DNA of 64,000 nucleotides from Pedobacter schmidteae (GCA_945901155.1 CAMDKO010000003.1:848-64847), one strand, 5' to 3'. Shown: positions 1,138 through 63,318, counted from the first letter of the stretch. A program made the numbers and translations. The notes: generated by a model not told the origin, from the sequence alone.

Positions 1138-3312
1138 ATGTCATCTTTAAGATTTCAAGCACTAAATGCAGTACTTTCAAGGACAATTCCTGAAGTAAAA
1201 ATGCCTTCAACCAAACTTTCTGATTTTTATGGAAGTAATGTCTTCGATCAGAAGAAAATGAAAGATAGTTTATCTAAAGAAGCCTTTAGCAGTATTATTG
1301 ATTCGATTAATTCGGGAACTCCAATTGATAGAGGTATCTCAGAACAAGTTGCATCTTCTATGAAATCATGGGCTATGTCTAGAGGAGCATCACATTATAC
1401 GCATTGGTTCCAGCCATTAACAGGAAGCACAGCAGAAAAGCATGACTCTTTCTTTGAGCCAGGTTCTGATGGTCAAGGTTTAGAGAAATTCTCTGGTGAA
1501 GCCTTATCGCAACAAGAACCAGATGCATCAAGTTTTCCAAACGGAGGCATAAGAAGCACATTTGAAGCACGTGGTTATACTGCATGGGATCCATCATCAC
1601 CAGCATTTATCATCGGATCTACCTTGTGTATTCCTACAGTATTTATTTCTTATACCGGCGAGGCCTTAGATTATAAGGCTCCTTTATTAAAGGCTATTGG
1701 TTTAATGGATAAAGCAGCTGTTGCTGTTGCACAATACTTTGATAAAAGCATTGAAAAAATTAATAGCTCATTAGGTATCGAGCAGGAATATTTTCTTGTT
1801 GATCTTGCCTTATTTAATGCTAGACCCGACCTTTATCTTACCGGAAGAGCTTTATTTGGTCACATGTCTGCTAAAAATCAGCAATTAGATGACCATTATT
1901 TTGGATCAATTCCTGAACGTGTTCTTGCCTACATGCAAGATTTTGAAACGGAAGCCATCAAATTGGGTATTCCTTTAAAAACCCGTCATAATGAGGTTGC
2001 TCCTTCTCAATTTGAGTGTGCACCTTTATATGAGGAAATGAATCTTGCCATTGACCATAACTCTTTGTTAATGGACTTAATGGATAAAGTTGCCCGCAGA
2101 CATAACTTCAAAGTTCTTTTGCATGAAAAGCCTTATGCAGGTATCAATGGTTCAGGTAAACACAATAACTGGTCATTAATTACGAATACTGGTAAAAACC
2201 TGCTTTCGCCTGGAAAAACTCCAAAAAACAATTTGATGTTCCTTACATTCTTTGTCAATACGATCAGAGCAGTTTTTGAATATTCAGATCTTTTAAGAGC
2301 ATCTATTGCATCTGTCAATAATGATCACCGTTTAGGTGCTAATGAAGCTCCACCAGCAATCATCTCTATGTTCCTTGGAAGTCAGCTGAATGACCTGCTA
2401 GATGAAATTGAATCGTCAAGGGTAACCAACAAGATGAAGCAAGAGCCATCATTATGGACTAATATTCCAAAAATACCACAGATCTTATTGGACAACACCG
2501 ATCGTAACCGTACTTCACCATTAGCTTTTACAGGTAATAAATTTGAATTACGCGCAGTTGGATCTTCGGCTAACTCTGCCAATCCAATGACAATATTGAA
2601 CACGATCATTGCAGATCAGTTAAATAAATTCAAGGCAGAAGTTGATAAACTGATCAAAAAAGGCGAGAAAAAAGATGTTGCGATCATGACAGTGATCAAA
2701 CGTTACATCAAAGAATCTAAAGCTATTCGTTTTGAAGGCAATGGTTATAGCGATGAGTGGGCCGAAGAAGCTAAAAAAAGAGGATTGTCAAATATCAAAA
2801 CTACGCCAAAAGCGCTTGATGTTTTATTGGATCCTAAAACAGATAAATTATTTCAAGATACCGGAGTATTCAGCAAACGCGAATCACATGCACGTCATGA
2901 AATACTGTTAGAAAGTTATTTCAAAAAACTTCAGATTGAAGCAAGAGTAATGGGTGACCTGGTTGATAATGTGATTATTCCAACAGCGATCAATTATCAA
3001 ACAACTCTTATTGATAACGTAAAAGGCCTTAAAGATCTTGGCTTGGGCGAAGATACCTATGCCGCTCAGCTTGATATCATCAAGATGATATCAGGGCATG
3101 TTAACTTTATCAGAACAGCAAACATTGAAATGGTTAATGAACGTAAAAAAGCGAATAATATCGAAGATATAAGAGATAAATCTATTGCCTACGATGAGAA
3201 AGTTAAATCATTCTTTGATCCAATCCGCTATCATGTTGATAAACTTGAGCAATTAGTAGACGATTCAAAATGGCCTTTGCCTAAATTCAGAGAGTTATTG
3301 TTTCTGAAGTAG
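1138..3312 (+). CDS. glnA: Glutamine synthetase type III
   Basis: 724 aa; HYTHWFQPLTG, QEPDASSFP, RHNEVAPSQFE, GSGKHNNWS and DRNRTSP motifs of GSIII. Confidence 0.96.
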   Translation: MSSLRFQALNAVLSRTIPEVKMPSTKLSDFYGSNVFDQKKMKDSLSKEAFSSIIDSINSGTPIDRGISEQVASSMKSWAMSRGASHYTHWFQPLTGSTAEKHDSFFEPGSDGQGLEKFSGEALSQQEPDASSFPNGGIRSTFEARGYTAWDPSSPAFIIGSTLCIPTVFISYTGEALDYKAPLLKAIGLMDKAAVAVAQYFDKSIEKINSSLGIEQEYFLVDLALFNARPDLYLTGRALFGHMSAKNQQLDDHYFGSIPERVLAYMQDFETEAIKLGIPLKTRHNEVAPSQFECAPLYEEMNLAIDHNSLLMDLMDKVARRHNFKVLLHEKPYAGINGSGKHNNWSLITNTGKNLLSPGKTPKNNLMFLTFFVNTIRAVFEYSDLLRASIASVNNDHRLGANEAPPAIISMFLGSQLNDLLDEIESSRVTNKMKQEPSLWTNIPKIPQILLDNTDRNRTSPLAFTGNKFELRAVGSSANSANPMTILNTIIADQLNKFKAEVDKLIKKGEKKDVAIMTVIKRYIKESKAIRFEGNGYSDEWAEEAKKRGLSNIKTTPKALDVLLDPKTDKLFQDTGVFSKRESHARHEILLESYFKKLQIEARVMGDLVDNVIIPTAINYQTTLIDNVKGLKDLGLGEDTYAAQLDIIKMISGHVNFIRTANIEMVNERKKANNIEDIRDKSIAYDEKVKSFFDPIRYHVDKLEQLVDDSKWPLPKFRELLFLK

Positions 3313-3509
3313 TACTGAGTACTGAGTATTGAGATATGTGACACAAAGTTCTGCTTCGGCAGAACTTTGTTGTTTATAGCCATATCTCACATCTCCAATC
3401 TCATATCTCCAATCTCATATCTCAAATCTCCAATCTCATATCTCCAATCTCATATCTCAAATCTCATATCTCATATCTCATATCTCATATCTCACATCTC
3501 AAATCTAAA
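3310..3509 (+). repeat. Heptamer array A: GAGTAYT/GAGATAT arm, UUCG hairpin, then 18 ATCTC-type units
   Basis: TAGTACT GAGTACT GAGTATT GAGATAT from 3310; 18 units (ATCTCAT/ATCTCCA/ATCTCAA/ATCTCAC/ATCTAAA) at 3384-3509. Confidence 0.95.
3343..3376 (+). terminator. Probable glnA terminator hairpin
   Basis: 12-bp perfect stem ACAAAGTTCTGC / GCAGAACTTTGT with C-UUCG-G loop and a T-rich tail. Confidence 0.7.
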
Positions 3510-3512
3510 TAC

Positions 3513-3520
3513 TACTTTTG
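3513..3520 (+). promoter_or_regulatory. Bacteroidota -7 promoter element of purM
   Basis: TACTTTTG matches TAnnTTTG and ends 5 nt before ATG 3526. Confidence 0.6.
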
Positions 3521-3525
3521 CATTA

Positions 3526-5152: not shown

Positions 5153-8100
5153 TTATTGGAAATTGTAACGGAACCCGAATTGCAAGTAATAAGTAGATGC
5201 AAAAGTTTGTGAGGTTCCAAAAGTAGAATTTACCGGTTTGTTATTAAATGTATTTAACCAGAATGTAGGTTTGGTTGTTCCAACAGGTGTTAAAGCTGAA
5301 ACGTTTTGAGGAACAAGAACTGCTGCAGTTTGAACAAAATCAACTGTACCCCATTTGCTATTCAATAAGTTACCAAAATTCATGATGTCAATAGTGAATT
5401 GGAAATTATTTTTACTTTTTCCAAAATCTTTAAATAATTCCTGAGTTAATCTGACATCAACTTGGTTTCTCCATGGAAGTTTAGCACCACTACGCTCAGC
5501 ATACTTTCCTTTATTCTTTTTAAGGTAATCATCCTGCTCAATATAAGCGAAGAAAAAGTCACTTTGCTCCTGTGCAGTATAAGCAACATTACTTGTTGCT
5601 GAAGATGCAGGGCGAGCAGCAAAAGTAATCTCTGAAGGATCCTTAGGAATGTAAATCAAATCATTTGTTTGACCATCACGATTGAAATCAGATGAATACG
5701 TATAAGAGAACCTACCTTGATGTGATGCCTCAAGGAACATAGACACAGAAGTAGCTAGATTCTTGAAGTATTCTTTACGGTAATTAAGACCTGCAATTAC
5801 ACGGTGAGGAACATTGAAGTTTGAATAACTCAAACCTGGATTATTTCCAGTACGTGAGGTTTGAGTTAATGACCATGTATTAAATAATTGATCACCATTA
5901 CCATCATAAAGTATTTTTTGCTCACTTCTGGTATAAGATAAAGTAGCTGACAATCCTTTATTGAAAGATTTGTTTAATGTTGCAGTAAGGAACCATGAAT
6001 GGCCTTCATTTGAATTATCCAAAACAACCGGATTTAATGCCGCTGTACCAGTTGCACTTGCTTGTCCTGTACTGGTCAATTTATTGATAAACTTGTCTGC
6101 GACAGCATTTGGATACATCGGACGGTTATCAGGATATCCTGTGACATTCAAAGCAGTTGGATCTACTAGATTGACATTGAATCCTTTTGCAATATTCAGA
6201 TCTTTATTATAAATACCTTCTAATGTACCAACAATACCCCATGGCAATTTCGCATCTAACGCTAAGCTACTTTTCCAGGTTTGAGGGAATCTAAATTCTG
6301 GATCAATTGCACTAATAGTAGCTGGAATTGAAGTACCGGCTGCAGGAGGAGTTGCTGGCAAGTATTTTCTAACATCAACACTGAATGGCCCTGGAGTATT
6401 AGCAGTACCATTCCAGTTTTGAGTAAACTGAATAAGACCAGCATCACCAGACTGAGCTACGATCCAAACAAAAGGAACTTTAGTTGTGAAAATACCGGTA
6501 CCACCTCTTAATTGTAAAGAGCGATCACCTTTAACATCATAATTAAAACCTAATCTTGGAGAGAACATAATTCTTTCTTTAGGTAAAACACCAGTATCTA
6601 TTTTTCTTCCTTGAGAAAAACTTAATGGAGCAATTAAAGGATGTGTTTTTATTTCAGGCACATCAGGGTATGTAGGCAATTCAAAACGAAGACCTGCTGT
6701 GATGTTTAGCTTCTCACCTACGCGGAAATTATCTTGAAGATAAGCTGAATACTGTTGGAATTTAAATGTTGGGAATGCTTGCACATAGCCAGGAGATAAT
6801 GAATAGGTTATAGCATAATCATTCGGTTTAGCACCAGAAACAAAATCATTCCAAGAATTAAAACGGTAAGCACCTGTTCCAAAACGCTGAAATCCATTTT
6901 TGGTAGTACTAAAATCCATTTGAGCACCTAAAGTTAATTCATGATTCCCAAGATTCATTGTGAAATTATCTGTAAAACTATAAGTCTGAACATCTCTTAA
7001 GTTTCCATAAGTAAAAGGTTCATAACCAAAAGTGGTAAATGCTGTTCCATCTTTCATAATATCCACTAATGGAAAAATATCACTTTCAGAACCCCTTGGG
7101 TCATTCTGGTGTGTAAAACTACCTCTTAAGGTGTTTGAGAATTTAGATCCAAATGAAGAGTTTAACTCGGCAGCCAATGAATATTGATTAGCCTCTTGAG
7201 TATAATTTGAATTACTGAATTGTAAATGACCCGGATTACCACGACCCCCATTATTAGGAAAGTTAAAACCTGTTCCACTAGTTGAAGAACTGATAAAAGA
7301 AGGAGAACTACTTTCTACTTGGTTGTAACGAATGTTAAAACGGTGATCTTTATTTATATTCCAGTCAAGACGAGCTAAAAATTTATAGTTATTGCTTTTA
7401 TTTGCATACCCCTGATACACTCCAGGATTATAACCATAGGTATTTTTTAGATAATTACTAATCATATCCATTTCGCTAGCTAATGGACGAGCAACATTCG
7501 GATTTGAACCAAACGGTGCTGAACTTGTAGCTGCAACCCTATTTTGACCAGGTCTAACCTCATCAGTACGGTCAATATTTGCGAAAAAGAAAAGCTTATT
7601 TTTAATGATCGGTCCACCTAAACTAAGTGCGAATTGAGTAACGTCAAGCGGTTGTAAAACAATGGTATTATCTCCAACCTTATTTCCCTGGTTACCTTGA
7701 TTACGCATACCGAAAAAAGCATTTCCGAAAAAGTTGTTTTTTCCTGAACGAGTTACCGCGTTAATTGCACTACCTACAAATCCAGACATTCTTACATCGT
7801 ATGGTGCAACATTTACTGAAACTTCTTCAATAGCATCAATTGAGATTGGAGAGCCACCTGCAGGCAGGTTACTACCAATACCAAATTGGTTATTGAAATC
7901 TGAACCATCTACTGTAAAGTTATTCTGACGGTAGTTACCCCCACCAATTGAAGCGCCGTTTGCCTGAGGAGTAAATTTAGTTAGATCATTGACACTTCTA
8001 CTGATTGTAGGTACATTTTGAATTTGGTCACGACCAATATTGGTTGTTGCACCGGTACGATTAGCATTTAATACTGAATTAGGATTTTGTGCGGTAATTA

Positions 8101-8449
8101 CAACTTCCTGAAGCTGTCTTCCAGATTCAGTAAGTAAAATAGTTAACACAAAAGGCTCACCTAATTTTAACTTCACTTCGCTGAATGATTGTGCTTGGTA
8201 TCCAACATAAGTTACTTGAATAAGATAAGGTCCTCCAACACGCATGTTAGGGATATTGAATCTACCGTCGACACCAGATGAAGAACCGTAAATAGTTCCT
8301 GTAGGCTGATGTGTAGCCTTTATTGTAGCACCAATCAGTGATTCCTTTGAATCACGAATAGTACCCGATAAACTACTGGTTGTGACCTGTGCAGAAAGAG
8401 TAAACACAGTGGATAACACGACAAGAGTTAAGAGTAAAAAATTTTTCAT
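5153..8449 (-). CDS. TonB-dependent outer-membrane receptor with N-terminal carboxypeptidase-regulatory-like domain (Oar-like)
   Basis: Signal peptide, GTIRD...GATIKATHQPTG domain, plug (IDAIEEVSVNVAPYDVR, INAVTRSG), C-terminal beta strand QFGFRYNF. Confidence 0.92.
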   Translation of the reverse strand: MKNFLLLTLVVLSTVFTLSAQVTTSSLSGTIRDSKESLIGATIKATHQPTGTIYGSSSGVDGRFNIPNMRVGGPYLIQVTYVGYQAQSFSEVKLKLGEPFVLTILLTESGRQLQEVVITAQNPNSVLNANRTGATTNIGRDQIQNVPTISRSVNDLTKFTPQANGASIGGGNYRQNNFTVDGSDFNNQFGIGSNLPAGGSPISIDAIEEVSVNVAPYDVRMSGFVGSAINAVTRSGKNNFFGNAFFGMRNQGNQGNKVGDNTIVLQPLDVTQFALSLGGPIIKNKLFFFANIDRTDEVRPGQNRVAATSSAPFGSNPNVARPLASEMDMISNYLKNTYGYNPGVYQGYANKSNNYKFLARLDWNINKDHRFNIRYNQVESSSPSFISSSTSGTGFNFPNNGGRGNPGHLQFSNSNYTQEANQYSLAAELNSSFGSKFSNTLRGSFTHQNDPRGSESDIFPLVDIMKDGTAFTTFGYEPFTYGNLRDVQTYSFTDNFTMNLGNHELTLGAQMDFSTTKNGFQRFGTGAYRFNSWNDFVSGAKPNDYAITYSLSPGYVQAFPTFKFQQYSAYLQDNFRVGEKLNITAGLRFELPTYPDVPEIKTHPLIAPLSFSQGRKIDTGVLPKERIMFSPRLGFNYDVKGDRSLQLRGGTGIFTTKVPFVWIVAQSGDAGLIQFTQNWNGTANTPGPFSVDVRKYLPATPPAAGTSIPATISAIDPEFRFPQTWKSSLALDAKLPWGIVGTLEGIYNKDLNIAKGFNVNLVDPTALNVTGYPDNRPMYPNAVADKFINKLTSTGQASATGTAALNPVVLDNSNEGHSWFLTATLNKSFNKGLSATLSYTRSEQKILYDGNGDQLFNTWSLTQTSRTGNNPGLSYSNFNVPHRVIAGLNYRKEYFKNLATSVSMFLEASHQGRFSYTYSSDFNRDGQTNDLIYIPKDPSEITFAARPASSATSNVAYTAQEQSDFFFAYIEQDDYLKKNKGKYAERSGAKLPWRNQVDVRLTQELFKDFGKSKNNFQFTIDIMNFGNLLNSKWGTVDFVQTAAVLVPQNVSALTPVGTTKPTFWLNTFNNKPVNSTFGTSQTFASTYYLQFGFRYNFQ

Positions 8450-8485
8450 AAAATGAATTTTAATTGATTAATTGATTGAGTGCTG

Positions 8486-8493
8486 CAAATATA
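8486..8493 (-). promoter_or_regulatory. -7 promoter element of the receptor gene
   Basis: TATATTTG(CAG) on the minus strand, 36 nt upstream of the start. Confidence 0.7.
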
Positions 8494-8640
8494 CAGAGCA
8501 ATTTTGAAAATTTTCTAGTAGTTGTATTAAGTAAGTGTTAAATTTCATAGATACTTTTCTACATTTTGGTTTTATCAACAACAATTAAATAAATCTATAT
8601 TAAGTCGGGACAAATATTTTCAACCGCTTGAGTATTTTAT

Positions 8641-8648
8641 TAGATTTG
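8641..8648 (+). promoter_or_regulatory. -7 promoter element of lpdA
   Basis: TAGATTTG(C), 33 nt upstream of the ATG. Confidence 0.65.
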
Positions 8649-8681
8649 CCTTAATTCTCCATTGTACTACAAATATTATAT

Positions 8682-10070
8682 ATGAATTACGACATCATTA
8701 TTATCGGAAGTGGACCAGGCGGATACGTAGCCGCCATTCGTGCAGCACAATTAGGCTTAAAGGTTGCAATAGTTGAACGCGAATCTCTCGGTGGAATTTG
8801 TTTGAATTGGGGTTGTATTCCTACAAAAGCATTATTAAAAAGTGCTAATGTGTTTGAATATATTACTCATGCGGCAGATTATGGAATCAAAGTCCAGGGT
8901 TCGGAAGTTGATTTTGGTTCAATTATTAAAAGGAGCCGAGGAGTAGCCGATGGAATGAGCAAGGGCGTTCAGTTCCTGATGAAAAAGAATAAAATCGATG
9001 TCATCATGGGTACAGGAAAAATAAAAAAAAGTGGTAAAATTGACGTGATTGATCCTGATGGATCTTCAAAAGAATATACTGCCACGCATACCATTCTTGC
9101 TACAGGTGGACGATCAAGAGAATTACCGAATATAAAACAGGATGGCAAAAAAATTATTGGTTATCGACAGGCTATGGTATTAGCAAAACAGCCAAAATCT
9201 ATGGTTGTTGTAGGTTCAGGAGCTATAGGTGTTGAATTTGCATATTTCTACAATACCCTGGGAACTCAAGTTACCATTGTTGAATACCTTGATAATATTG
9301 TACCTGTAGAGGATGAAGATATTTCAAAACAATTACTAAGAAGCTTCAAAAAATCAGGAATAACAATTATGACCGGAACTAATGTAGAGTCTGTTGATAC
9401 CTCAGGTTCAGGTTGTAAAGTACAGGTAAAAACCGCCGTAGGAACTGAAATAATTGAATGCGATATTGTACTCTCTGCCGTCGGGTATAGTCCTAACCTT
9501 GAAAACTTAGGCCTAGAAGAAGTTGGAGTTCAGATGGATAAAGGTCGAGTTCAGGTTAATGATTTTTACAAAACAAATATAGAAGGCGTATATGCTATTG
9601 GTGATATTGTTAAAGGGCAGGCACTTGCTCATGTTGCTTCGGCAGAAGGAATTATTTGTGTTGAAAAAATAGCTGGCCATCATCCTGAACCATTAAACTA
9701 TAACAATATACCGGGTTGTACGTATTGCTCACCTGAGATTGCCTCAGTTGGTTATACCGAAAAAGCAGCAAAAGAAGCTGGATATGAGCTAAAAATTGGA
9801 AAATTTCCATTTTCAGCTTCGGGTAAAGCCAGTGCTGCCGGAGCAAAAGATGGTTTTGTTAAAGTTATCTTTGATGCTAAATACGGTGAATTACTTGGCG
9901 CTCACATGATTGGTACCAATGTTACCGAAATGATTGCCGAAGTTGTGGTTGCAAGAAAACTTGAAACTACAGGCATGGACATCGTTAAAACCGTACATCC
10001 ACACCCTACCATGAGCGAAGCAATTATGGAAGCTGCTGCTGATGCTTATGGAGAAGTGATTCACTTATAA
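8682..10070 (+). CDS. lpdA: Dihydrolipoyl dehydrogenase
   Basis: GSGPGGYVAAIRAAQLG, redox CLNWGC and HPHPTMSE motifs. Confidence 0.97.
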   Translation: MNYDIIIIGSGPGGYVAAIRAAQLGLKVAIVERESLGGICLNWGCIPTKALLKSANVFEYITHAADYGIKVQGSEVDFGSIIKRSRGVADGMSKGVQFLMKKNKIDVIMGTGKIKKSGKIDVIDPDGSSKEYTATHTILATGGRSRELPNIKQDGKKIIGYRQAMVLAKQPKSMVVVGSGAIGVEFAYFYNTLGTQVTIVEYLDNIVPVEDEDISKQLLRSFKKSGITIMTGTNVESVDTSGSGCKVQVKTAVGTEIIECDIVLSAVGYSPNLENLGLEEVGVQMDKGRVQVNDFYKTNIEGVYAIGDIVKGQALAHVASAEGIICVEKIAGHHPEPLNYNNIPGCTYCSPEIASVGYTEKAAKEAGYELKIGKFPFSASGKASAAGAKDGFVKVIFDAKYGELLGAHMIGTNVTEMIAEVVVARKLETTGMDIVKTVHPHPTMSEAIMEAAADAYGEVIHL

Positions 10071-16726: not shown

Positions 16727-16727
16727 C

Positions 16728-16735: not shown

Positions 16736-16737
16736 AA

Positions 16738-17115: not shown

Positions 17116-17222
17116 TTTTATGAACTTAATCCCTTGAAAAGGAACCCGAAAATTTTACAGAACTTGAAAAATAAAACTAAACTGTAAAATAAGTATAGTT
17201 ATGTTTCAAAAACAAACATTTT

Positions 17223-17278
17223 AGCTTTCCGCTTTAAGCTTTATCCTTTCAGCTTTATCCTTTCAGCTTTAAGCTTTC
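17223..17278 (+). repeat. Heptamer array B: 8 units AGCTTTA/AGCTTTC/TCCTTTC/CGCTTTA
   Basis: Read directly; lies 7 nt beyond the pntB stop. Confidence 0.93.
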
Positions 17279-17285: not shown

Positions 17286-18692
17286 TTAGAGTGTTTTAAT
17301 TTCTGCTACTAATTTTTGAAGTACTGATTTTGCATCTCCAAATAACATGGAAGATTTAGGTTGAAAAAAGAGCTCATTTTCAATACCAGCATAACCGGGA
17401 TTCATACTCCTTTTATTTATAATAACCAATTTAGAAAGCTCAACATCAAGAACCGGCATTCCATAAATTGGAGATCCCGGGTCTGTTTTGGCTGCAGGAT
17501 TAACAACATCGTTGGCTCCAAGAACCAAAACCACATCTGTTTGAGGAAATTCTTCATTAGCATGTTCCATTTCCAACAATCTGGCATAATCTACATCTGC
17601 TTCGGCAAGAAGTACATTCATATGACCAGGCATACGACCTGCAACCGGATGGATCGCATAATTTACTTCAACACCTTTGTCGGATAATAATTTTTCAAGT
17701 TCATGGCATACGTGCTGAGCCTGAGCAACTGCCAAACCATATCCCGGAACAATCATAACCTTTTTTGCATAGCTCATTACAACTGCTGAATCACTGATAC
17801 TTATCTCTTTATAGGCACCCTGATCTTTACTTACAGAACCTGCTGAAGAACCTCCAAATGAGCCAATTAAAACATTACTCAATGGTCGGTTCATTGCTTT
17901 ACACATCAGTATGGTTAAAATTGTACCAGCCGAACCTACTAAAATACCACCGGTAAGCATTACAGGATTATCATATAAAAATCCGCCAAAGGCTGCTGCA
18001 ACCCCTGTAAATGAATTTAATAATGAAATAACAACCGGCATGTCTGCACCACCTATAGGCAATACAAAGAACAATCCATAAATAATTGACAATGCAAAAA
18101 CTAAATAGAATAAGGACCCTGCTGCAGGATCACCTGATATGATTAGGTATGCTGAAAGACAGATAATCACAGCAAAAATAACAAGGTTCATAATATGCTG
18201 ACCATTGAATGCAAAATCCTTAATTCTTCCATTCAGTTTTGCCCAGGCCACCATACTACCAGCAAATGAAATTGTTCCAATAATCAAACCAGCAAAAATG
18301 ATTAAGAGTGTTCCACTGTTAACTGCTCCACCCAACTGAATTTGATGATTAAGATGATCGAATTCTACAATTGAAATTAACGCAGCGCAGGCACCACCCA
18401 TTCCGTTAAATAAACTAACCATTTCTGGCATAGCGGTCATCTTAACCTTTTTTGCTGCACGGGTACCCAAAACAGTACCAATAATCAATGCTGCGAAGAT
18501 CCAGATATAATTTCCGAGTTTTATACCTTCTTCTTGATATAGAAAAATAGTCCCCAAAATAGATATGGCCATTCCAGCTGCTGCGATAAGGTTTCCTTTT
18601 CTGGCACTTTCAGGATGACTCAACATCTTTAATCCGATAATAAAGGTTACAGATCCGATCAGGTAACAAATGATTAGTATATTTAATTCCAT
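17286..18692 (-). CDS. pntB: NAD(P)+ transhydrogenase beta subunit
   Basis: TAMPEMVSLFNGMGG, GGADMPVVISLLNS, HPVAGRMPGHMNVLLAEA and GANDVVNPAA motifs. Confidence 0.97.
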   Translation of the reverse strand: MELNILIICYLIGSVTFIIGLKMLSHPESARKGNLIAAAGMAISILGTIFLYQEEGIKLGNYIWIFAALIIGTVLGTRAAKKVKMTAMPEMVSLFNGMGGACAALISIVEFDHLNHQIQLGGAVNSGTLLIIFAGLIIGTISFAGSMVAWAKLNGRIKDFAFNGQHIMNLVIFAVIICLSAYLIISGDPAAGSLFYLVFALSIIYGLFFVLPIGGADMPVVISLLNSFTGVAAAFGGFLYDNPVMLTGGILVGSAGTILTILMCKAMNRPLSNVLIGSFGGSSAGSVSKDQGAYKEISISDSAVVMSYAKKVMIVPGYGLAVAQAQHVCHELEKLLSDKGVEVNYAIHPVAGRMPGHMNVLLAEADVDYARLLEMEHANEEFPQTDVVLVLGANDVVNPAAKTDPGSPIYGMPVLDVELSKLVIINKRSMNPGYAGIENELFFQPKSSMLFGDAKSVLQKLVAEIKTL

Positions 18693-19066: not shown

Positions 19067-19303
19067 TGTTGATTGTTGATTAAACTTTGATCTATTAGAT
19101 TACCTGAAACTAATTACTAAAATTAATTACGAATTACTAAAACGAATTACGAATTACGAATTACCAAAACTAATTACGAATTACGAATTACCAATTACCA
19201 ATTACGAAAACTAATTACGAATTACGAATTACCTAAAACTTATTACTTATAACTTATTACTTATAACTTATTACTTATTACTTATTACTTATTACTTATT
19301 ACT
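19067..19303 (+). repeat. Heptamer array C: TGTTGAT x2, AATTAC(G/C/T) units with AAAACT spacers, then 9 TATTACT/TATAACT units
   Basis: Read directly at 19067-19080, 19098-19240 and 19241-19303; the last units lie inside the pntA1 3' end. Confidence 0.95.
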
Positions 19304-20415
19304 TCCTTCACCCTTTCATTACAAACCTCACCATTATAGGTAATACAAGTACCCTTCACCAAATCATCCTCAAAATTAAGATTGATCTGTCCTTCAGGTC
19401 CAAAGATTAACTGAAGAAAATTCAAAATATTCTTTCCATAGAGCTTACTTGCATCTGAGGGCATTGTTCCTTGAAGATTTGAATTACCTATAATGGTTAC
19501 ATTTTTATAAACCACAGTTTCACTGTCTTTAGTTTGCGTAGTGTTTCCACCAGTAGCTGATGCCAGATCAATAATAAATGACCCACTTTTCATTGAATCC
19601 AGAATACTGTCAGGTAAAAGTATTGGAGCTTTCTTGCCAGGTATTTGAGCAGTAGTGATGATCACATCTGCTTTTGAAGCAACTTCAGCAATTCGCTGCT
19701 GTTGTTTTTGCTTGTACTCTTCAGTTTGATCAACAGCATATCCACCTGCTTTTGAGGCATCAAGAGCTCCTTCAACTTCAATAAATTTAGCACCCAGACT
19801 CATGACTTCTTCCTTTACAGCGGGTCTAGTATCAAATACCTCCACTACAGCTCCTAATCTCTTAGCAGTTGCAATAGCCTGAAGACCTGCTACACCTGCT
19901 CCTAATATCATTACTTTTGCTGGTGCAATACTTCCAGCAGCGGTCATGAACATTGGGAAATATTTAGGCAACTGCATAGCAGCAAGTAATACTGCCTTAT
20001 AACCTGCAATATTTGCTTGGGAGCTAAGTATATCCATACTCTGAGCCCTGGTTGTACGGGGAAGCATATCCATACTAAAGGTTGTTAAACCTTTTGCTGC
20101 CCAATCATTAATTAATACAAAATTTGAGAGCGGACTATAAACTCCTAAAACAACAGCATTCTTTTTTATTTTTTTTAAATCATCTGTTGTAAGCAGATTT
20201 ATACTGAGCAGAATATCAGAGTTCTTCAAAACATTTTCTCTAGAGCTAAGCTCAGCACCCTGCTCTGTATATAATGAGTCGGATGCATAAGCATGGCTAC
20301 CGCAATTATGCTCTGCCAATACATGAATATTTTGTTTTTTGAGTGCCGCGATGTGCTCGGGAATTAAAGAAACCCTAGATTCTGTAGTCGGTTCGCGTAA
20401 GATGCCAATAGTCAT
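19285..20415 (-). CDS. pntA: NAD(P)+ transhydrogenase alpha subunit, NAD-binding part (alpha1)
   Basis: ESRVSLIPE, PRTTRAQSMDILSSQANIAGYKAV, FMTAAG, GAGVAGLQAIATA and TTAQIPGKKAP motifs. Confidence 0.96.
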   Translation of the reverse strand: MTIGILREPTTESRVSLIPEHIAALKKQNIHVLAEHNCGSHAYASDSLYTEQGAELSSRENVLKNSDILLSINLLTTDDLKKIKKNAVVLGVYSPLSNFVLINDWAAKGLTTFSMDMLPRTTRAQSMDILSSQANIAGYKAVLLAAMQLPKYFPMFMTAAGSIAPAKVMILGAGVAGLQAIATAKRLGAVVEVFDTRPAVKEEVMSLGAKFIEVEGALDASKAGGYAVDQTEEYKQKQQQRIAEVASKADVIITTAQIPGKKAPILLPDSILDSMKSGSFIIDLASATGGNTTQTKDSETVVYKNVTIIGNSNLQGTMPSDASKLYGKNILNFLQLIFGPEGQINLNFEDDLVKGTCITYNGEVCNERVKEVISNK

Positions 20416-49776: not shown

Positions 49777-50970
49777 ATGAATCTGCTTGATAAACTCCTT
49801 GAAAATTATCAGTCGTTTGAAGAAATTCAGATAAAAGACCGATTTTTCAAACATAACCTGATATGTGAATTATTAGATTCAATCAAAAACAATAAGGTTT
49901 TCGGTATTGAAGAGGTTGGACTGTCAACTATGGGTCGTTCAATCCATTTAGTTAAATGGGGAAATGGACCTTGCAAAGTGTTTTTGTGGAGTCAGATGCA
50001 TGGTAATGAAGCTACAGCCACGATGGCATTAATTGATCTTCTAAAATTTTTATCGCAAAATGGACTTTATAATGAAATCATAGATTCCATAGATAAAAAC
50101 TGTACCCTGTATATTTTACCAATGCTTAATCCTGACGGTGCTGAAGTTTTTACCAGGAGAAACGCGATGGAAATTGATATTAACCGCGACTTCCATAGTC
50201 AGCAAAGTCCTGAAGCTAGATTATTGCGCAAATTAAGAGATGTTATTCATCCTCATTTTGGTTTTAATTTACACGATCAGAGTACTTTATGGTCGGCAGG
50301 AAAATCTGGTAAGCCCGCAACAATATCCTTACTGGCACCTGCATATGATGAAGAGCTAAGCATCAATTCTGTACGTCAAAAAGCAATGCAGGTAATTGCA
50401 TTAATGAATGTAGAGTTACAAAAGAATATACCCGGATGTGTTGGACGATTTAACGATGAATATGAACCACGAGCTTTTGGTGATAATTTTCAGGCAGCCG
50501 GAACAAGCACCATCCTGATTGAAGCTGGAGGTTTTTACAATGATCCTGAGAAACAGTATATCCGCAAAATCTATTTTAAAGCAATTCTTGTAGGCTTAAT
50601 AAGTATTGCGAAAAAATCATACCTCAATATTGAGGATAAGGAATATTTTTCAATACCAGAGAATAAAAAATTACATTTTGATCTATTATTAAGAAATTGT
50701 AAGCTTCAAAGAAATGGAATTTCTTACCTAACTGATATAGGTTTAGTTGCTGTTGAAAAGATTAATGACGACTTGCATTCAGTAAGTCAAACCTATACAG
50801 TGGGTGAATTGGGCGATTTATCTCAATACTTTAGCTATGAAGAATTCAATTGTGAATTACATAGTATCACTGAAATAAGTAATTTAAAGATTGACGAACC
50901 AGCAGATTTAATTGTACATGATGGAAAGCATTTAGTGCTTTCAATTAAGAATGGGGTTTTAACTAATTAG
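49777..50970 (+). CDS. M14 zinc carboxypeptidase family protein
   Basis: QMHGNE, NPDG, DINRD and NLHDQ motifs. Confidence 0.9.
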   Translation: MNLLDKLLENYQSFEEIQIKDRFFKHNLICELLDSIKNNKVFGIEEVGLSTMGRSIHLVKWGNGPCKVFLWSQMHGNEATATMALIDLLKFLSQNGLYNEIIDSIDKNCTLYILPMLNPDGAEVFTRRNAMEIDINRDFHSQQSPEARLLRKLRDVIHPHFGFNLHDQSTLWSAGKSGKPATISLLAPAYDEELSINSVRQKAMQVIALMNVELQKNIPGCVGRFNDEYEPRAFGDNFQAAGTSTILIEAGGFYNDPEKQYIRKIYFKAILVGLISIAKKSYLNIEDKEYFSIPENKKLHFDLLLRNCKLQRNGISYLTDIGLVAVEKINDDLHSVSQTYTVGELGDLSQYFSYEEFNCELHSITEISNLKIDEPADLIVHDGKHLVLSIKNGVLTN

Positions 50971-51118
50971 ATATGAGTAGTGAGTATAGAGTATAGAGTA
51001 TAGAGTATTGAGATAGATTCTGCTTCATCTCAGATCTCAGACCTCATACTTCAGACTTCAGACCTCATACCTCAGACTTCATACCTCAGACAACCGATAA
51101 CCGATAACAACTAAAACA
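50968..51118 (+). repeat. Heptamer array D filling the whole spacer
   Basis: GAGTATA x3, GAGTATT, GAGATAG, core, CAGACCT/CATACTT/CAGACTT/CATACCT units, CCGATAA x2. Confidence 0.95.
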
Positions 51119-52363
51119 ATGGCATTAAACTACATCTGGATTGGCTTCTTTGTAATTGCATTTGTTGTAGCAATTGTAAAGCTTATCGTATTTGGAGATA
51201 CCAGCATTTTCAATAATGTGGTCAATGGAATGTTTGACAGTGCAAAAACAGGTGCTGAGATCTCTATTGGGCTGATTGGAATCATGACCTTCTGGTTAGG
51301 CATAATGAAAATCGGAGAACGGGCAGGAATGATCACACTTTTTGCCCGCGGTGTAAATCCGTTTTTCAGCAGATTGTTTCCTGAAGTACCAAAAAACCAT
51401 CCTGCAAATGGTTCTATTATCATGAACTTTTCGGCAAATATGCTGGGCTTAGATAATGCTGCAACACCGGTTGGCTTAAAGGCCATGCAGGAATTACAGG
51501 AATTAAACCCCCAGAAAGATACAGCCAGTAATGCGCAGATCATGTTCCTTGTTCTTAATACCGCTGGAATTACATTAATCCCTACGGGAGTAATTGCTTT
51601 AAGAATGGCTAATGGTGCGGCTAACCCTGCAGATGTATTCATTCCCTGCCTGATTGGCACTTTCATTTCATTCCTAGCGGGAATGATCGCGGTAGCTATC
51701 TACCAAAAGATCAATCTCTTTCAGCTACCAATACTCATTTTCTTTGGTAGTTTCATTGCATTAATGTCTGGGCTGTATTTTTGGCTTGGCTCACTTCCGT
51801 CAGAACAGATTCAAATATATGCGGGTCTTTTAGGTGGTATAATTATTTTTTCAATCATTACTCTGTTTATTGCTTATGGTGCATCAAAAAAAGTGAATGT
51901 GTATGAAGCCTTTATCGATGGAGCAAAAGAAGGTTTCAGTACCTCAATTATGATCATACCATTTCTTATTGCAATACTTGTTGCCATAAGTACTTTTCGC
52001 ACAACCGGTTGCATGGATTATGTAGTGAATGCTATTGGTTCATTGGTAGCTTTATCCGGACTTGACACATCGTTTGTTCCAGCTTTACCAGTAGGATTAA
52101 TGAAAACATTAAGCGGTGGAGGTGCCAGAGGATTAATGGTTGATGTAATGAAAACCTATGGTGCAGATTCATTTCAGGGCAGACTTGCAAGTATCATTCA
52201 GGGATCTTCAGAAACTACTTTTTATGTTCTTGCGGTATATTTTGGCTCAGTAGGGATCAAAAAACCAAGATATGCCATTATTTGCGGATTGATAGCCGAT
52301 CTTGTTGGTCTGATCGCTGCGATATTCCTGGCCTATTTATTCTTTGGACATACGATAAAATAA
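51119..52363 (+). CDS. SpmA/SpmB-like fused membrane protein (nucleoside-recognition gate domains)
   Basis: NFSANMLGLDNAATP, KAMQELQ, SSETTFYVLAVYFG motifs. Confidence 0.9.
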   Translation: MALNYIWIGFFVIAFVVAIVKLIVFGDTSIFNNVVNGMFDSAKTGAEISIGLIGIMTFWLGIMKIGERAGMITLFARGVNPFFSRLFPEVPKNHPANGSIIMNFSANMLGLDNAATPVGLKAMQELQELNPQKDTASNAQIMFLVLNTAGITLIPTGVIALRMANGAANPADVFIPCLIGTFISFLAGMIAVAIYQKINLFQLPILIFFGSFIALMSGLYFWLGSLPSEQIQIYAGLLGGIIIFSIITLFIAYGASKKVNVYEAFIDGAKEGFSTSIMIIPFLIAILVAISTFRTTGCMDYVVNAIGSLVALSGLDTSFVPALPVGLMKTLSGGGARGLMVDVMKTYGADSFQGRLASIIQGSSETTFYVLAVYFGSVGIKKPRYAIICGLIADLVGLIAAIFLAYLFFGHTIK

Positions 52364-56247: not shown

Positions 56248-57138
56248 ATGAAGCAAGTATTACTGATCTGTTGCCTTTTCTTTTTTTTATTTACTAAAGC
56301 TTTAGGCCAGCCTTCAGGCAATAATAACCAACAGCAATTAATTGCATTTCAGGATAGTCTGAAACAGATTAGCTATAAAATGGTTAATGACAGCATAGAA
56401 CCTGAACGGTATAATGCAAGTTACAAATTGATAAAAACTCTATTAACGGCCTTAAAAACACCTTATTCTTTCGATTTTACTTTTGATTCTGTAAAATCAA
56501 TTTCAATTCAGTCGTCGTCAGATAAACGATTTAGGATTTTTAGCTGGCATGTGATGAATAATGATGGAAGCTACAGATATTATGGAACTATCCAAATGAA
56601 TAAGCCTGATGGTAAGCTAGAATTGCTTCCATTGATTGATTATACCTCCGTTTTTAAGAACCCATCTGATAGTATTACAACTAATGATAAGTGGTTTGGT
56701 GCTCAATATTATAAAATAATTCCAGTATTAAACAATGTTCCAATTCCTTATTATGTATTGCTTGGATGGAAGGGAAACACGATTAAATCAACAAAGAAAA
56801 TCATAGAAATTCTTTATTTTAAAGATGGAAAGGCACATTTTGGGATGCCTGTATTTGATGGAGATCCAGATAATTTAGGAAAAAAGCGAATCATCTTTGA
56901 GTATGATAGAAGAGCTTCTATGTTTTTGAATGATGAGCCTACGATAAATACAATCGTTTTTGACCATCTGGCTCCACCCGATCCGAAACTAAAAGGAAAG
57001 TTTGAACTGTATGGCCCTGATTTCTCTTATGATGGATTTAAACTGGTTAATGGCCGATGGAAATTTGTACAAGACCTTGAACTAAAAAACAATCCAACAG
57101 ATCAGGATGATAACTTCAATGACCCTAAAAAGTTGTAG
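56248..57138 (+). CDS. Secreted hypothetical protein
   Basis: Long ORF with signal peptide; FRIFSW, IVFDHLAP and GPDFSYDGF; no function recognised. Confidence 0.8.
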   Translation: MKQVLLICCLFFFLFTKALGQPSGNNNQQQLIAFQDSLKQISYKMVNDSIEPERYNASYKLIKTLLTALKTPYSFDFTFDSVKSISIQSSSDKRFRIFSWHVMNNDGSYRYYGTIQMNKPDGKLELLPLIDYTSVFKNPSDSITTNDKWFGAQYYKIIPVLNNVPIPYYVLLGWKGNTIKSTKKIIEILYFKDGKAHFGMPVFDGDPDNLGKKRIIFEYDRRASMFLNDEPTINTIVFDHLAPPDPKLKGKFELYGPDFSYDGFKLVNGRWKFVQDLELKNNPTDQDDNFNDPKKL

Positions 57139-57450
57139 GTTATAGGTTGTAGGTTATAAGTTTTAAGGATAAAGCTGAAAGCTAAAAGGTGAAAGCTGAA
57201 AGCCTAATTTAGCTTCATTTCATAGTAGCACTTCAGACCTCATACTTCATACTTCAGACCTCAGACAACTGAATCAAGAGCCAAGAGCCAAGACAAAGGA
57301 TCAAAGACAAAGGACAATTCAGCGCAATTTTAAAATTTCTTGATTTTTGCCATGTTCAGACCTCAGACCTCAGACTTCAGACCTCATACCTCCGACAACA
57401 GACAACTGACAACTGACAACTGATAACAGACAACTGATAACAGATAACTA
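57131..57450 (+). repeat. Composite heptamer array E (five repeat families)
   Basis: GGTTRTA (57131-57165), AGCTGAA (to 57207), CTTCAGA/CCTCATA (about 57230-57270), CCAAGAG/CAAAGGA (57274-57316), CTCAGAC then AACTGAC/AACAGAT (57355-57450). Confidence 0.95.
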
Positions 57451-58698
57451 AGGCGATACCGCCTGCATCATCAATCCAGATATATAAGCACCATAAGTTC
57501 CTATAACATAGCCAAAAACAGCTAATAGCACTCCAATGGGAGCTAAAGAAGGGTGAAAGGCACTTGCAATTACAGGCGCAGAGGCAGGACCACCGATATT
57601 AGCCATACTACCAACCGCAAGGAAAAAGAAGGGTGTTTTAGTAAGCTTTGCAACAATAAAGATCACAATAGCATGAATCAGGATCCAAACTAAACCAACA
57701 ATAAGTATACCCGGCTTATTAAAAATAGCCATGATATTCATCTGCATACCAATTGTTGCAATCAAAACATACAGCAATACGCTTCCAATTCTTGAAGCTC
57801 CTGCTCCTTCCAGATTCCTGAGCTTGGTAAAAGAAAGTATCATACCTAAAGTTGTAGCTATTATTACTATCCAAAAAAACCCTGAAGTAAGACTAAATGC
57901 GCTTAAATAAGGTGCATTAATAGTGATCCATGGAGCAATATAATCTGCTCCGAAATGAGCAATACCTGTTATACCAAACCCAATGCCCAAAATCAAAAGA
58001 ATATCTTCCATTTTAGGAATTCTCATAATACTTTGCTGATAAGCTTCAATTTTATCTTTTATTTCAGTGACCGATTGATCATTAGCTTTTAAAAAGCTGT
58101 TGATCAGCATATTTTTACCTGCGCCAAATAGTAATAAAGCCATCCAGAGGTATGAAATGAATACATCAAGAGCCACCATGGCAGAAAATAGATCAGGGCT
58201 TGGCTTAAATATCTCATACATTGCTGCCTGGTTAGCACCCCCACCAATCCAAGTACCTGCAACGGTACTTAATCCTCTCCAAACCTCTTCAGCACCCTCA
58301 CCACCTACAATTTCAGGCGCAAACAATGAAATCAAAAAAACAGCTGCTGGACCACCTAGCATAATACTGATCGAAGCAGTTATAAACATTAAGCCTGCCT
58401 TTTTTCTTAACTTCCATATTTCACTCAAATCAAGGCTTAAAGTAAATAATACCAGACTAGCAGGTAAAAGATACCTGGATGCCATGGTATAAAGAGCGGA
58501 TGTTGTACCTGAAATAATACCCATTGAATTTAACAGGCCAGGTAGAAAATAGCAAAGCAGAATAGGTGGAATAAATGTATACAGTCTTTTAAAAAATGGA
58601 ATATTGCTTTCAGATGTCCAGAAGACCAATCCGAGAATACCCATAAGGATTCCTAATACAACTGCATCGTTCGTAATCAGGGCAGAATGATCTATCAT
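57448..58698 (-). CDS. DUF819 family membrane protein
   Basis: GTWIGGGANQAAM, GSMANIGGPASAP and GYVIGTY motifs. Confidence 0.88.
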   Translation of the reverse strand: MIDHSALITNDAVVLGILMGILGLVFWTSESNIPFFKRLYTFIPPILLCYFLPGLLNSMGIISGTTSALYTMASRYLLPASLVLFTLSLDLSEIWKLRKKAGLMFITASISIMLGGPAAVFLISLFAPEIVGGEGAEEVWRGLSTVAGTWIGGGANQAAMYEIFKPSPDLFSAMVALDVFISYLWMALLLFGAGKNMLINSFLKANDQSVTEIKDKIEAYQQSIMRIPKMEDILLILGIGFGITGIAHFGADYIAPWITINAPYLSAFSLTSGFFWIVIIATTLGMILSFTKLRNLEGAGASRIGSVLLYVLIATIGMQMNIMAIFNKPGILIVGLVWILIHAIVIFIVAKLTKTPFFFLAVGSMANIGGPASAPVIASAFHPSLAPIGVLLAVFGYVIGTYGAYISGLMMQAVSP

Positions 58699-61018: not shown

Positions 61019-61068
61019 GAATTGAATTTTATATTTATATAACTAATTAACATTGACCTCCTGAACCT

Positions 61069-62232: not shown

Positions 62233-62240
62233 TATATTTG
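62233..62240 (+). promoter_or_regulatory. -7 promoter element of queG
   Basis: TATATTTG, ending 9 nt before ATG 62250; the TTG start in the ORF track lies inside it. Confidence 0.65.
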
Positions 62241-62249
62241 AACTACATA

Positions 62250-63179
62250 ATGGTCAATAAAAGTCAATATTCACAGTTTATAAAAGCAGAAGCCCTAAAA
62301 CTGGGTTTTATGTTCTGTGGTATATCAAAAGCGGGATTCCTTGAGGAAGAAGCTCCACGACTTGAAAACTGGCTTAAAAATGGTTATAACGCAGAAATGA
62401 GCTATATGGAGAATCATTTCGATAAACGTCTTGACCCCCGTAAATTGGTTGATGGAGCTAAATCAGTCATATCATTAGCCTTAAATTATTATACTGATCA
62501 GAAACAAAAAGATCCCTTTGCGCCTAAAATAAGTCAGTATGCTTTTGGTGATGACTACCATGCCGTAATTAAAGAAAAACTGAACCTATTAATGGCTGTT
62601 ATTAAGGATGAGATTGGTGAGGTTAGTGGCCGTTCCTTTGTTGATTCTGCACCTGTACTTGATAAAGTATGGGCAAAAAAAGCAGGATTAGGTTGGATTG
62701 GCAAGCATACGAACCTAATCAATAAAAATTCAGGTTCTTTTTTCTTTCTTGCAGAATTGATCCTTGATCTTGATCTGGAATACGATAGTGCACCAACAAA
62801 AGACCATTGTGGAACCTGTACAAAATGTATAGATGCCTGCCCTACTGATGCAATTGTTGATCCTTATGTTGTGGATGCAAGCAGATGTATTTCATACCTA
62901 ACAATTGAATTGAAAAATGAACTTCCCGTAGAGTTTAAGGGCAAAATGGATAATTGGATGTTTGGCTGCGATATTTGCCAGGATGTTTGCCCCTGGAATA
63001 AATTTTCTGTACTCAATACTGAACCTTTATTCAATCTAGGAGATGAACTTTTAGAATTAACACAGCGAGATTGGCAGGAAATTACTGAGGACACCTTCAA
63101 AAAGGTATTCAAAAACTCAGCTGTTAAAAGAACAAAATTTAATGGATTAAAGCGGAATATTGATTTTTTAAGGTCTTAA
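62250..63179 (+). CDS. queG: tRNA epoxyqueuosine(34) reductase
   Basis: [28 protein letters not shown] and [13 protein letters not shown] motifs. Confidence 0.95.
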
Positions 63180-63186
63180 TTTTATT

Positions 63187-63318
63187 GTCTGAAGTATGAG
63201 GTCTGAGGTCTGAAGTGCTGGAATGAAATAAGGCAGTATCTATCTCAATACTAAAACTAACTATCCAATAGCTGACAACAGATAACTGTTAACCTACAAC
63301 TGATAACCGATAACTCAA
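63187..63318 (+). repeat. Heptamer array F
   Basis: GTCTGAA GTATGAG GTCTGAG GTCTGAA arm, core, then GACAACA/GATAACT/TACAACT/GATAACC arm. Confidence 0.9.

Follow-up and report, generated by a model that had tools for sequence, protein, structure and literature searches.

The DNA analysed here is a 64,000-nt stretch of the genome of Pedobacter schmidteae (GCA_945901155.1; positions 848–64847 of contig C3, CAMDKO010000003.1), hereafter the window, which lies inside a 65.8-kb contig of a draft genome of 2.74 Mb (191 contigs, 37% G+C). Among its genes are purM, pntA1 and pntA2, and its sole Rfam match is a bacterial class A RNase P RNA (16737–17120, + strand, 263 bits). Six of its spacers, called A to F below, contain arrays of tandem 7-nt units (heptamers); according to where open reading frames (ORFs) lie, all of these arrays sit between genes, and most of them touch a stop or a start codon. 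It is probable, in our view, that they are gene-less descendants of the arms of cassettes that resemble the intervening sequences (IVSs) of rRNA, expanded by slippage and shuffled as modules. Based on purM, this genome belongs to the Sphingobacteriaceae: its closest relatives are metagenome-assembled genomes (MAGs) that carry the labels Pedobacter sp. (89% identity) and Daejeonella sp. (87% identity). Where labels are needed, G000 is the genome under study, other G numbers are genomes of the genus and L numbers are extracted loci.

The original prediction, made from the window sequence alone, described the six spacers as period-7 elements, and Tandem Repeats Finder calls such arrays in all six (the multiples 14, 21 and 35 were counted with period 7; Table 1). 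Each of the units it named (GAGTATA, ATCTCAT, AAAGCTG, AATTACG/AAGTAAT, CAGACCT, GATAACT and CCAAGAG) was found. The enrichment of this period extends to the whole assembly: with one scoring scheme for periods 5–11, there are 220 arrays of period 7 and only 1, 5, 13, 5, 1 and 8 arrays of periods 5, 6, 8, 9, 10 and 11, respectively. Crude ORF calls, which account for 89% of the assembly, leave 207 of the 220 arrays outside, and these count as intergenic; the remaining ones mostly fall in ORF starts that are over-extended. The arrays are held by 116 spacers and have a median of 4.6 units (maximum 17.6). Once strands are collapsed, they form 55 consensus classes, the largest being the GAYAACW family (TAACTGA/CAACTGA/TAACAGA; 61 arrays); for 15 arrays the consensus is AACTGAT, which is TAACTGA in another register. 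Convergent spacers bear arrays about twice as often (24 out of 281) as co-directional (66 out of 1487) or divergent (13 out of 283) ones. No array in the window has the make-up of a CRISPR array: the units are 7 nt long, run head to tail and are not separated by spacers.

Two observations concern ORF calls and assembly. On contig C29 (8256–8456), five AGTTATC units and 11 ACAACAG units are found mid-way in an apparent 717-codon ORF (7346..9499), which is either two genes fused by a stop-free array or a spurious ORF call. Contigs of the three closest relatives (C107 of G004, C166 of G037 and C138 of G008; loci L201–L203) stop inside arrays, at most ∼200 nt upstream of the ortholog of window ORF 51119..52363. 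As short-read contigs break at arrays, array counts from draft genomes are underestimates.

The arrays are oriented. We call an array G-type if G exceeds C on the strand stated, and C-type if C exceeds G. In the window, the sense strand is G-type at all eight gene 3′ ends that touch an array and C-type before all three start codons, just as predicted; in the whole genome the same rule is a strong bias and not an absolute one, with 45 G-type versus 10 C-type arrays within 30 nt of a stop codon and 53 C-type versus seven G-type arrays within 60 nt of an ATG. Arrays whose nearest gene end is a 3′ end comprise 65 G-type and 32 C-type arrays, and those whose nearest end is a 5′ end comprise 14 and 65 (Fisher p = 5e-11). 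When both types occur in one spacer, G-type precedes C-type on the + strand in 35 out of 38 spacers (p = 7e-8). This order survives reverse complementation, so the polarity relative to transcription and the handedness of a bipartite element are the same fact. The handedness is also present in convergent spacers, which have no start codon to impose an order.

In 62 out of 96 array–start pairs, the array is no more than 60 nt away from the ATG; the median distance between array end and ATG is 34 nt, and one quarter are at 10 nt or less. A TAnnTTTG box (the Bacteroidota −7 box) is found between array and ATG in just seven of these 62 start-proximal arrays; the other 55 have none, and the arrays are therefore probably within operon mRNAs. 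Most arrays are probably transcribed with the upstream gene and would form the leader of the downstream gene; a promoter between array and gene, of which purM is a true case, was rejected as a general rule. Leaders without arrays in this genome are G-poor and A-rich (G 11.7%, C 13.6%, A 39.8%), and initiation in Bacteroidota is governed by mRNA structure, not by Shine-Dalgarno pairing (PMC6847099), which makes a filter against G-rich arrays ahead of start codons plausible. Such a filter cannot explain the convergent ends or the flanks of the cassette genes described below, which argues that the handedness is intrinsic to the element. We also considered an 'all-frame stop array', in which a 7-nt unit with a stop triplet closes all three frames; it might have accounted for the handedness as well as for a period that is no multiple of 3. 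We rejected it as weakly supported: 63% of G-strand units contain a stop triplet (55% expected from composition), 72 out of 196 G-strand arrays have no stop, and in the GACAACT family the stops are found on the C-type strand.

Arrays with the same layout enclose genes elsewhere in the genome. There are six matches to PF05635, a family of four-helix-bundle proteins, all on other contigs; none of the six window spacers contains a PF05635/TIGR02436 ORF. Five of the six genes sit between periodic arms in array-bearing spacers (background 116 out of ∼2051 spacers; binomial p = 3e-6). The original prediction had stated that such genes have heptamer bookends in Bacteroidota and had proposed a search for full elements with a cargo ORF; the bookends are real, and complete cassettes are present in this genome and across the class and the phylum. 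The cassette protein belongs to TIGR02436 and is a distant relative of Avd from diversity-generating retroelements; its only sequence match in the PDB is 2GSC (Xanthomonas XCC0516). Several unit families are common to cassette arms and gene-less arrays: GAGATGT/ATCTCAA, AATTACG/CGTAATT and TCTGTTA.

We sampled 30 cassette loci from 20 relatives and 28 loci from the whole phylum, and in these loci heptamer (at times octamer) arrays directly flank the gene. Statistics were computed for 53 cassettes from the class and phylum samples, oriented by their gene. Most of these genes, like five of the six in the genome under study, have a G/T-rich heptamer arm on one side and a complementary A/C-rich arm on the other. 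In 44 out of the 53, the upstream arm can be aligned with the downstream one (median length 34 nt, or about five units), and lag 7 gives the strongest autocorrelation in 39 out of 50 flanks of the class sample and in 30 out of 56 flanks of the phylum sample, where lag 8 comes second. Pairing with the true downstream arm is far stronger than with mismatched arms (permutation p <= 5e-5; mean −65 versus −47 kcal/mol), and the true partner is the top-ranking one in 13 of the 53 cassettes and one of the best four in 30. For example, a cassette lies between orthologous genes (…KGKPLRN* / cassette / MEQAYIIA…) in six species whose arm sequences differ from each other, and within every species both arms still match. 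A search of the accessible literature returned no description of four-helix-bundle genes with heptamer arms outside rRNA.

In cassette arms a period of 8 is second to 7, and periods of 6 and 9 are almost absent. Arms with an 8-nt period are seen at C122:5700-6200 (Table 1) and at L081, L086 and L256, with units including ACTAACAA and AACCAACT. The arms of L089 (G018:C18, about 111.6 kb) are GGAGACAGGGAACAGGAGACAGGG and CCCTGTATCCTGTCTTCTGTCC, apparently right after a tRNA-like 3′ end (…ggttcgaatccgcttctgacctcta).

Emptied cassettes, as supposed in the original prediction, are present in this genome and in its genus. Between nuoF and nuoG, congeners carry absent, full, half-deleted and emptied alleles (Table 1). 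The closest relatives of G000 (NuoG 99–100% identical) are without the cassette at this site. The final 18 nt of nuoF in G000 (…EEVTSQN*) are like those of cassette-bearing lineages, and the rest of the gene is like that of the cassette-free G004 (…EEAIQN*); since only these 18 nt are cassette-lineage-like, the cassette came with almost no flanking DNA. In G000, nuoF takes its last codons and its stop from the heptamer arm itself. Recombination has made this 3′ end (C14:34560-34600; compared over L171-L193) a mosaic, the tract being very short. That cassette arms were pre-existing hairpins of the host which received a gene is argued against by the 14-nt empty site. At C65, a tandem duplication (12308–12640; the second gene stub, MAESK, is placed at 12308–12613) has doubled the left arm together with the region upstream and five initial codons of the gene. 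The first copy of this duplication is cut off at 'gtcacccgata', which is half of a palindrome described below.

Table 1. Heptamer arms and associated features of the window, cassettes on other contigs of the genome and alleles at nuoF/nuoG
Feature	Coordinates or length	Strand	Units and context
Spacer A, left arm	3311..3339	+	TACTGAG x2, TATTGAG, ATATGTG (G>C); begins inside stop of ORF 1138..3312
Spacer A, centre	3343..3370	+	Perfect 12-bp hairpin acaaagttctgc-ttcg-gcagaactttgt, terminator-like
Spacer A, right arm	3381..3506	+	18 units ATCTCAT/ATCTCCA/ATCTCAA (C>G); 35-nt higher-order period
−7 box TACTTTTG	3513..3520	+	Fits Bacteroidota TAnnTTTG; 5 nt ahead of purM ATG (3526)
Spacer B, single arm	17219..17277	-	AAAGCTG/AAAGGAT units right after stop of ORF 17286..18692 (-)
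Spacer C, array	19228..19304	-	AAGTAAT/AAGTTAT x about 10 (G>C)
Spacer C, array	19094..19233	-	CGTAATT x about 16; 27/34/41-nt higher-order periods
Spacer C, array	19067..19081	-	AATCAAC x2 (C>G), 6 nt ahead of pntA2 start at 19061
Spacer D, left arm	50968..51017	+	GAGTAGT/GAGTATA/GAGTATT (G>C); begins at stop of ORF 49777..50970
Spacer D, centre	51018..51028		attctgcttca, part of recurrent centre GAGATAGATTCTGCTTCA
Spacer D, right arm	51029..51108	+	CTCAGAC/CTCATAC x9, then AACCGAT x2.4 (C>G); ends 10 nt before ATG 51119
Spacer E, left arms	57130..57203	+	AAGTTGT/AGGTTAT x5, then AAAGCTG x4.7 (G>C)
Spacer E, inner arrays	57230..57315	+	CTTCAGA/CCTCATA x5, CAAGAGC x2.7, CAAAGGA-like units
Spacer E, non-repeat core	57316..57353	-	About 75% like core of the roughly 40-copy composite module (AAGACTGTTTAGTGCTAATTGAAATTTTCTGCTTTTTT)
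Spacer E, right arms	57355..57449	+	TCAGACC x6, then GACAACT/GATAACA x8
Spacer F, left arm	63187..63213	+	GTCTGAG/GTATGAG x3.9 (G>C), 8 nt past stop of ORF 62238..63179
Spacer F, right arm	63268..63315	+	GATAACT/GACAACA family x about 6
Cassette	C55:2160		Arms GAGATGT/GAGATAT upstream, ATCTCAA/ATCTCAC downstream
Cassette	C21:1980		Arms AATTACG upstream, CGTAATT downstream
Cassette, inside nuoF-nuoG	C14:34616		Arms AAAATTA upstream, TTTTGGA/TTTTTGA downstream
Cassette	C122:5824		8-mer arms: TTAATTAG upstream, TAATTTGC downstream
Cassette	C65:12637		TCTGTTA arms; 167-bp tandem duplication retains only first five codons (MAESK)
nuoF/nuoG, absent allele	14 nt		'atgattctttaaca'; G004, G037, G008, G009, G006, G021
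nuoF/nuoG, full cassette	422-423 nt		G000, G027
nuoF/nuoG, half-deleted allele	276 nt		G002
nuoF/nuoG, emptied allele	59-68 nt		Arms and the gene's first ~11 codons; G028, G026, G035, G024, G033, G032, G036

In spacer A, the box ahead of purM is kept in orthologous spacers of several other genera (loci L001–L006). Its position between array and ATG places the right arm upstream of a promoter element, and its distance from the ATG would make the purM mRNA leaderless or nearly so. The array of spacer B is ∼100 nt downstream of the RNase P RNA, which is on the side opposite ORF 17286..18692. In spacer C, the AAGTAAT array encodes the final codons and the stop of pntA1 (ORF 19285..20415), and the CGTAATT array is confined to the G000/G004/G008 clade. 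Spacers E and F, other contigs and the congener G004 share the recurrent centre of spacer D. The left arms of spacer E begin inside the stop of ORF 56248..57138, and its right arms (G>C when the − strand is read) directly adjoin the stop of ORF 57448..58698 (−). The right arm of spacer F likewise abuts the stop of ORF 63320..63955 (−) and reads AGTTATC on the sense strand of that ORF.

The original prediction took the six spacers for products of one mechanism rather than independent accidents, and this is borne out by their cores: after masking of the arrays, the cores show extensive homology to one another, and composite modules recur. One module, [GAACCAA/GAGCCAA]n - AAGACTGTTTAGTGCTAATTGAAATTTTCTGCTTTTTT - [CAGACCT/CATACCT]n - [GACAACT/GATAACA]n, is present in about 40 copies, up to five of them in tandem. 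Out of about 186 000 species genomes, only five, all of them lake MAGs, contain an exact 21-mer of its core. The module has no stable fold in either orientation (z = +1.0 and +1.2).

A 16-bp palindrome, CCCGATAGCTATCGGG, has 34 copies in G000 (e.g. C2:13015, C63:1703 and C91:481) and is also seen at the congener sites orthologous to spacers D and E (L203, L290 and L293–L295). It is always at the tip of a larger inverted repeat, for example between heptamer arms, and is at the middle of a separate repeat of ∼100 bp with about 20 copies (…gcgagggctaggac.gtaattgccgcacact-PALINDROME-acaaggcgga…ggttattaaaggtctgtgtccgtaggact). The palindrome thus resembles an independent small element with hairpin loops as its target.

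The window sites C, D, E and F were compared in 29 congeners, and arrays are present at these sites in many of them. A short bipartite element whose arms are complementary (e.g. GTTATCT… / …CGATAAC) is common among the species at sites D and E, where it often encloses the palindrome, and at site C TAAGTTG/TAAGTAA units stand directly past the pntA1 stop in many congeners. G006 and G009 have short array-free spacers at all four sites; spacers of the G000/G004/G008/G037 clade are far longer, with shuffled modules. Spacer and array lengths vary even among genomes whose flanking proteins are 93–100% identical. At site A, MAGs of other lineages carry different heptamers in the same place, one pair being complementary (TATTGAG / CTCAATA), and the array is absent in one Daejeonella MAG. 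Shared sites, array-free relatives and rapid length change together suggest that the arrays are inherited and long-lived, yet dispensable and fast-evolving.

Array load differs widely within the genus. Matches to the GAYAACW pattern number 590 in G037, 519 in G008, 428 in G114 and 308 in G000, and there are none in 20 out of 55 genomes. Period-7 arrays per 100 kb amount to 8.0 in G000, 3.2 in G006 and 0.5 in G003, and to 0.5 and 0 in two sampled genomes that lack the four-helix-bundle gene. Among the 55 genomes, GAYAACW arrays are absent from six out of seven without the gene and from 14 out of 48 with it (Fisher p = 0.007; Spearman rho = 0.34; this one repeat family only, with no phylogenetic correction).

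It is the shared period, unit families, handedness and module homology from which we infer that the six window arrays descend from cassettes. A complete element is a cassette of about 420–500 bp wedged exactly between two genes, in the order stop codon, G/T-rich arm of about five 7-nt units, PF05635/TIGR02436 gene, complementary A/C-rich arm and start codon; arm sequences vary between cassettes, with both arms of one cassette matching. The cassette is gained at a precise site and then loses its gene by internal deletion, leaving the arms and the first codons of the gene, steps which the nuoF/nuoG alleles display. Spacers A–F are then probably old arms that were expanded or contracted by slipped-strand mispairing in 7-nt steps, and duplicated and shuffled as higher-order modules of 110–125 bp; in a small clade of Sphingobacteriaceae MAGs from lakes, a few of which go under the label Daejeonella, the arrays have undergone strong amplification. 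The orientation rule would be intrinsic to the cassette arms (G>C where a spacer is entered, C>G at its exit). Selection probably strengthens the rule, as the neighbourhoods of stop and start codons would tolerate some compositions only: Bacteroidota ribosomes, which do without Shine-Dalgarno pairing, tolerate G-poor, unstructured leaders. Most arrays are probably dispensable to the host.

The original prediction also proposed that the two arms of a spacer are partly complementary and that a read-through RNA folds them together. The complementarity is real in spacer A, where TGAGATATG pairs with CATATCTCA in the minimum-free-energy fold, but it is not a general rule in this genome; the predicted folding is likewise limited to spacer A (z = −5.0), the only significant fold among the six spacers, whose source is the central hairpin.

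Several results weigh against descent from cassettes. Spacers B–F fold no better than their dinucleotide shuffles (z between −0.5 and +1.2), partner arms of this genome pair no better than random partners (duplex energies, p = 0.62), and in gene-less spacers of this genome consensus-level complementarity between arms is seen four times where 8.4 are expected; with all three tests null, a long RNA hairpin joining both arms of each spacer was rejected as a general rule. In the cassettes, arm mismatches that could form G.U pairs show no bias toward the sense RNA (53 in sense versus 67 in antisense), so RNA-level pairing lacks specific support, and RNA-level selection on the cassette stems was dropped as well. 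At window sites C, D, E and F, the alleles of the 29 congeners are gene-less or absent, and none is filled by a gene. The core of spacer E reads ATG GCA AAA ATC AAG AAA TTT TAA (MAKIKKF*) on the − strand and resembles the N-termini MAKIERFEE/MATIKRFED of four-helix-bundle proteins (IVS-encoded proteins, IVPs) from other families, but a degenerate pattern search of the 55 genus genomes returned no intact gene starting like MAKIKKF, and we do not regard this core as the 5′ stub of an IVP gene. Similarly, 23 loci with the composite-module core, taken from five related MAGs, have no four-helix-bundle gene next to it, and the core is not counted as a cassette remnant. The correlation between gene and arrays in the genus also weighs less for being uncorrected for phylogeny and limited to one repeat family. 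Finally, the genome has 220 arrays and only six cassette genes. Where arms still pair, as in spacer A and in intact cassettes, the likeliest activity would, by analogy, be that of an RNase III-type stem like those of rRNA IVSs.

The imbalance between arrays and genes and the missing filled alleles at the four window sites would be expected if the arrays were ordinary long simple sequence repeats (SSRs) unrelated to cassettes, with 7 nt a polymerase-favoured unit, slippage starting independently in each spacer, and the cassettes just sharing permissive spacers with them. Heptamers are the commonest class of long SSRs in many prokaryotes (Mrazek 2007, summarised in PMC4679880), and copy number shifts fast between close genomes. 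But non-repeat cores and whole multi-array modules are homologous in different spacers, and slippage does not predict the strict G-then-C order; cassette arms share unit families and handedness with the arrays, the arrays at nuoF/nuoG arrive with the cassette at a 14-nt site, and gene-lacking genomes are mostly without arrays. We therefore consider an origin as ordinary SSRs rather unlikely.

The proximity of arrays to start codons invites another reading, in which a protein of the S1, cold-shock or CsrA-like kind, acting after transcription, would use them as cis-regulatory binding platforms within the leaders and trailers of mRNAs. Binding of a regulator has been proposed for the TAACTGA repeats of Beggiatoaceae, cyanobacteria and a few Bacteroidetes (MacGregor 2015, PMC4679880), where the repeats have the same forward orientation ahead of start codons and other heptamers occur in the same spacers (Gramella, Aequorivita, Elizabethkingia); in G000, TAACTGA/CAACTGA is the largest family, and the arrays within 60 nt of an ATG are mostly C-type. 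On the other hand, at least 55 unit classes are too diverse for a single sequence-specific factor, the orthologous genes in G006, G009 and G028 have no arrays at all, the downstream genes share no function (purM, pntA2, nuoG and the ORF at 51119, the spmAB of the original prediction), and the same arrays also lie past stop codons at convergent ends. This makes a regulatory platform improbable.

We give still less credence to bidirectional transcription insulators, in which a C-rich, G-poor tract would be a Rho loading site just before the next gene, so that antisense and read-through RNA is terminated and translated sense RNA of the operon is spared. It would fit the handedness, as C>G RNA comes last in either direction, and the excess of arrays in convergent spacers; it is, however, compositional reasoning alone, many arrays (20–35 nt) are below a typical Rho loading site, the elements are dispensable in close relatives, and the same handedness is seen in cassettes inside essential operons, where insulation is needless. 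Assembly artefacts, suggested by a fragmented MAG of 191 contigs and by congener contigs that often break at these repeats, are hardly conceivable, because the six arrays are interior to a 65.8-kb contig, independently assembled congeners have arrays at the same orthologous sites, and a contig end is 80 nt away or less for only four of the 220 arrays.

Among known systems, the intact cassettes are most readily compared with 23S rRNA IVSs that carry an S23p/IVP ORF (Leptospira, Coxiella burnetii, Xanthomonas and Brucella), as the protein family is the same (PF05635/TIGR02436) and inverted arms at the two termini enclose the gene. In Coxiella, the 5′ arm of the IVS stem has two to three tandem GACAGAT heptamers (G>C), upstream of S23p; their copy number differs between strains, the first repeat is where RNase III cleaves, and the stem is retained at the RNA level while the ORF decays (PMC4990558). 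The window arms also consist of tandem units of ∼7 nt, with G>C on the 5′ side. Unlike 23S IVSs, the elements here are found between protein-coding genes, including those of the nuoF-nuoG and pntA1-pntA2 operons, and not in helices 25/45; those of the window have no gene and mostly no complementary arms, and they have been amplified to 220 arrays and higher-order modules.

The TAACTGA repeats, for which examples from Bacteroidetes are given in PMC4679880 (MacGregor 2015), are likewise tandem intergenic 7-nt units, often a few nt before a start codon and in forward orientation, with several unit types per spacer, and are absent from orthologous spacers of close relatives; in G000, too, TAACTGA units are found in forward orientation just upstream of start codons. 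In that literature the heptamers are stand-alone repeats whose origin is not given, and neither a G-then-C handedness or a link to four-helix-bundle genes nor filled, emptied and absent alleles or composite modules are reported, all of which are seen here. We rate the system as IVS-like cassettes outside rRNA plus what are probably their amplified gene-less arms, which overlap the published TAACTGA/heptamer-repeat phenomenon. The cyanobacterial short tandemly repeated repetitive (STRR) sequences are also intergenic tandem heptamers. Pneumococcal BOX elements, enterobacterial bacterial interspersed mosaic elements/repetitive extragenic palindromes (BIME/REP) and Neisseria Correia elements are dispersed, modular, intergenic and co-transcribed, vary in copy number and have no transposase of their own; some of them alter mRNA stability. 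The arrays described here resemble them in being dispersed and modular, in lying between genes and in having no own transposase. Those elements, however, have conserved module sequences and stable hairpins, whereas here the 7-nt period and the strand composition are conserved and most copies are unfolded.

One further idea, speculative and on balance doubtful, is that the four-helix-bundle protein, a ring-shaped pentamer, would bind along the heptamer arms, with one protomer per 7-nt unit (∼five units per arm) on the G/T-rich strand, reading inward from each end; binding would drive precise insertion of the cassette between genes, and gene-less arms could still be mobilised or amplified in trans by the few genes present. 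If true, it would account for the 7-nt period, the universal handedness and the presence of 220 arrays with only six genes, and the heptamers of cyanobacteria and Beggiatoaceae and the rRNA IVSs would be one widespread class of transposase-free mobile elements.

In practical terms, the arrays break short-read assemblies, can supply the stop and last codons of genes and form the translation-initiation region of many others, so annotation and comparative genomics of Bacteroidota should account for them. Two puzzles have stood for ∼30 years, the function of the S23p/IVP family and the origin of intergenic heptamers (STRR, TAACTGA). This genome joins them, as its repeats share period, unit families and handedness with the arms of IVP cassettes; nuoF/nuoG displays the whole life cycle, from empty site to full, half-deleted and emptied cassette, and the small clade of lake bacteria shows what would be the outcome when gene-less arms proliferate.

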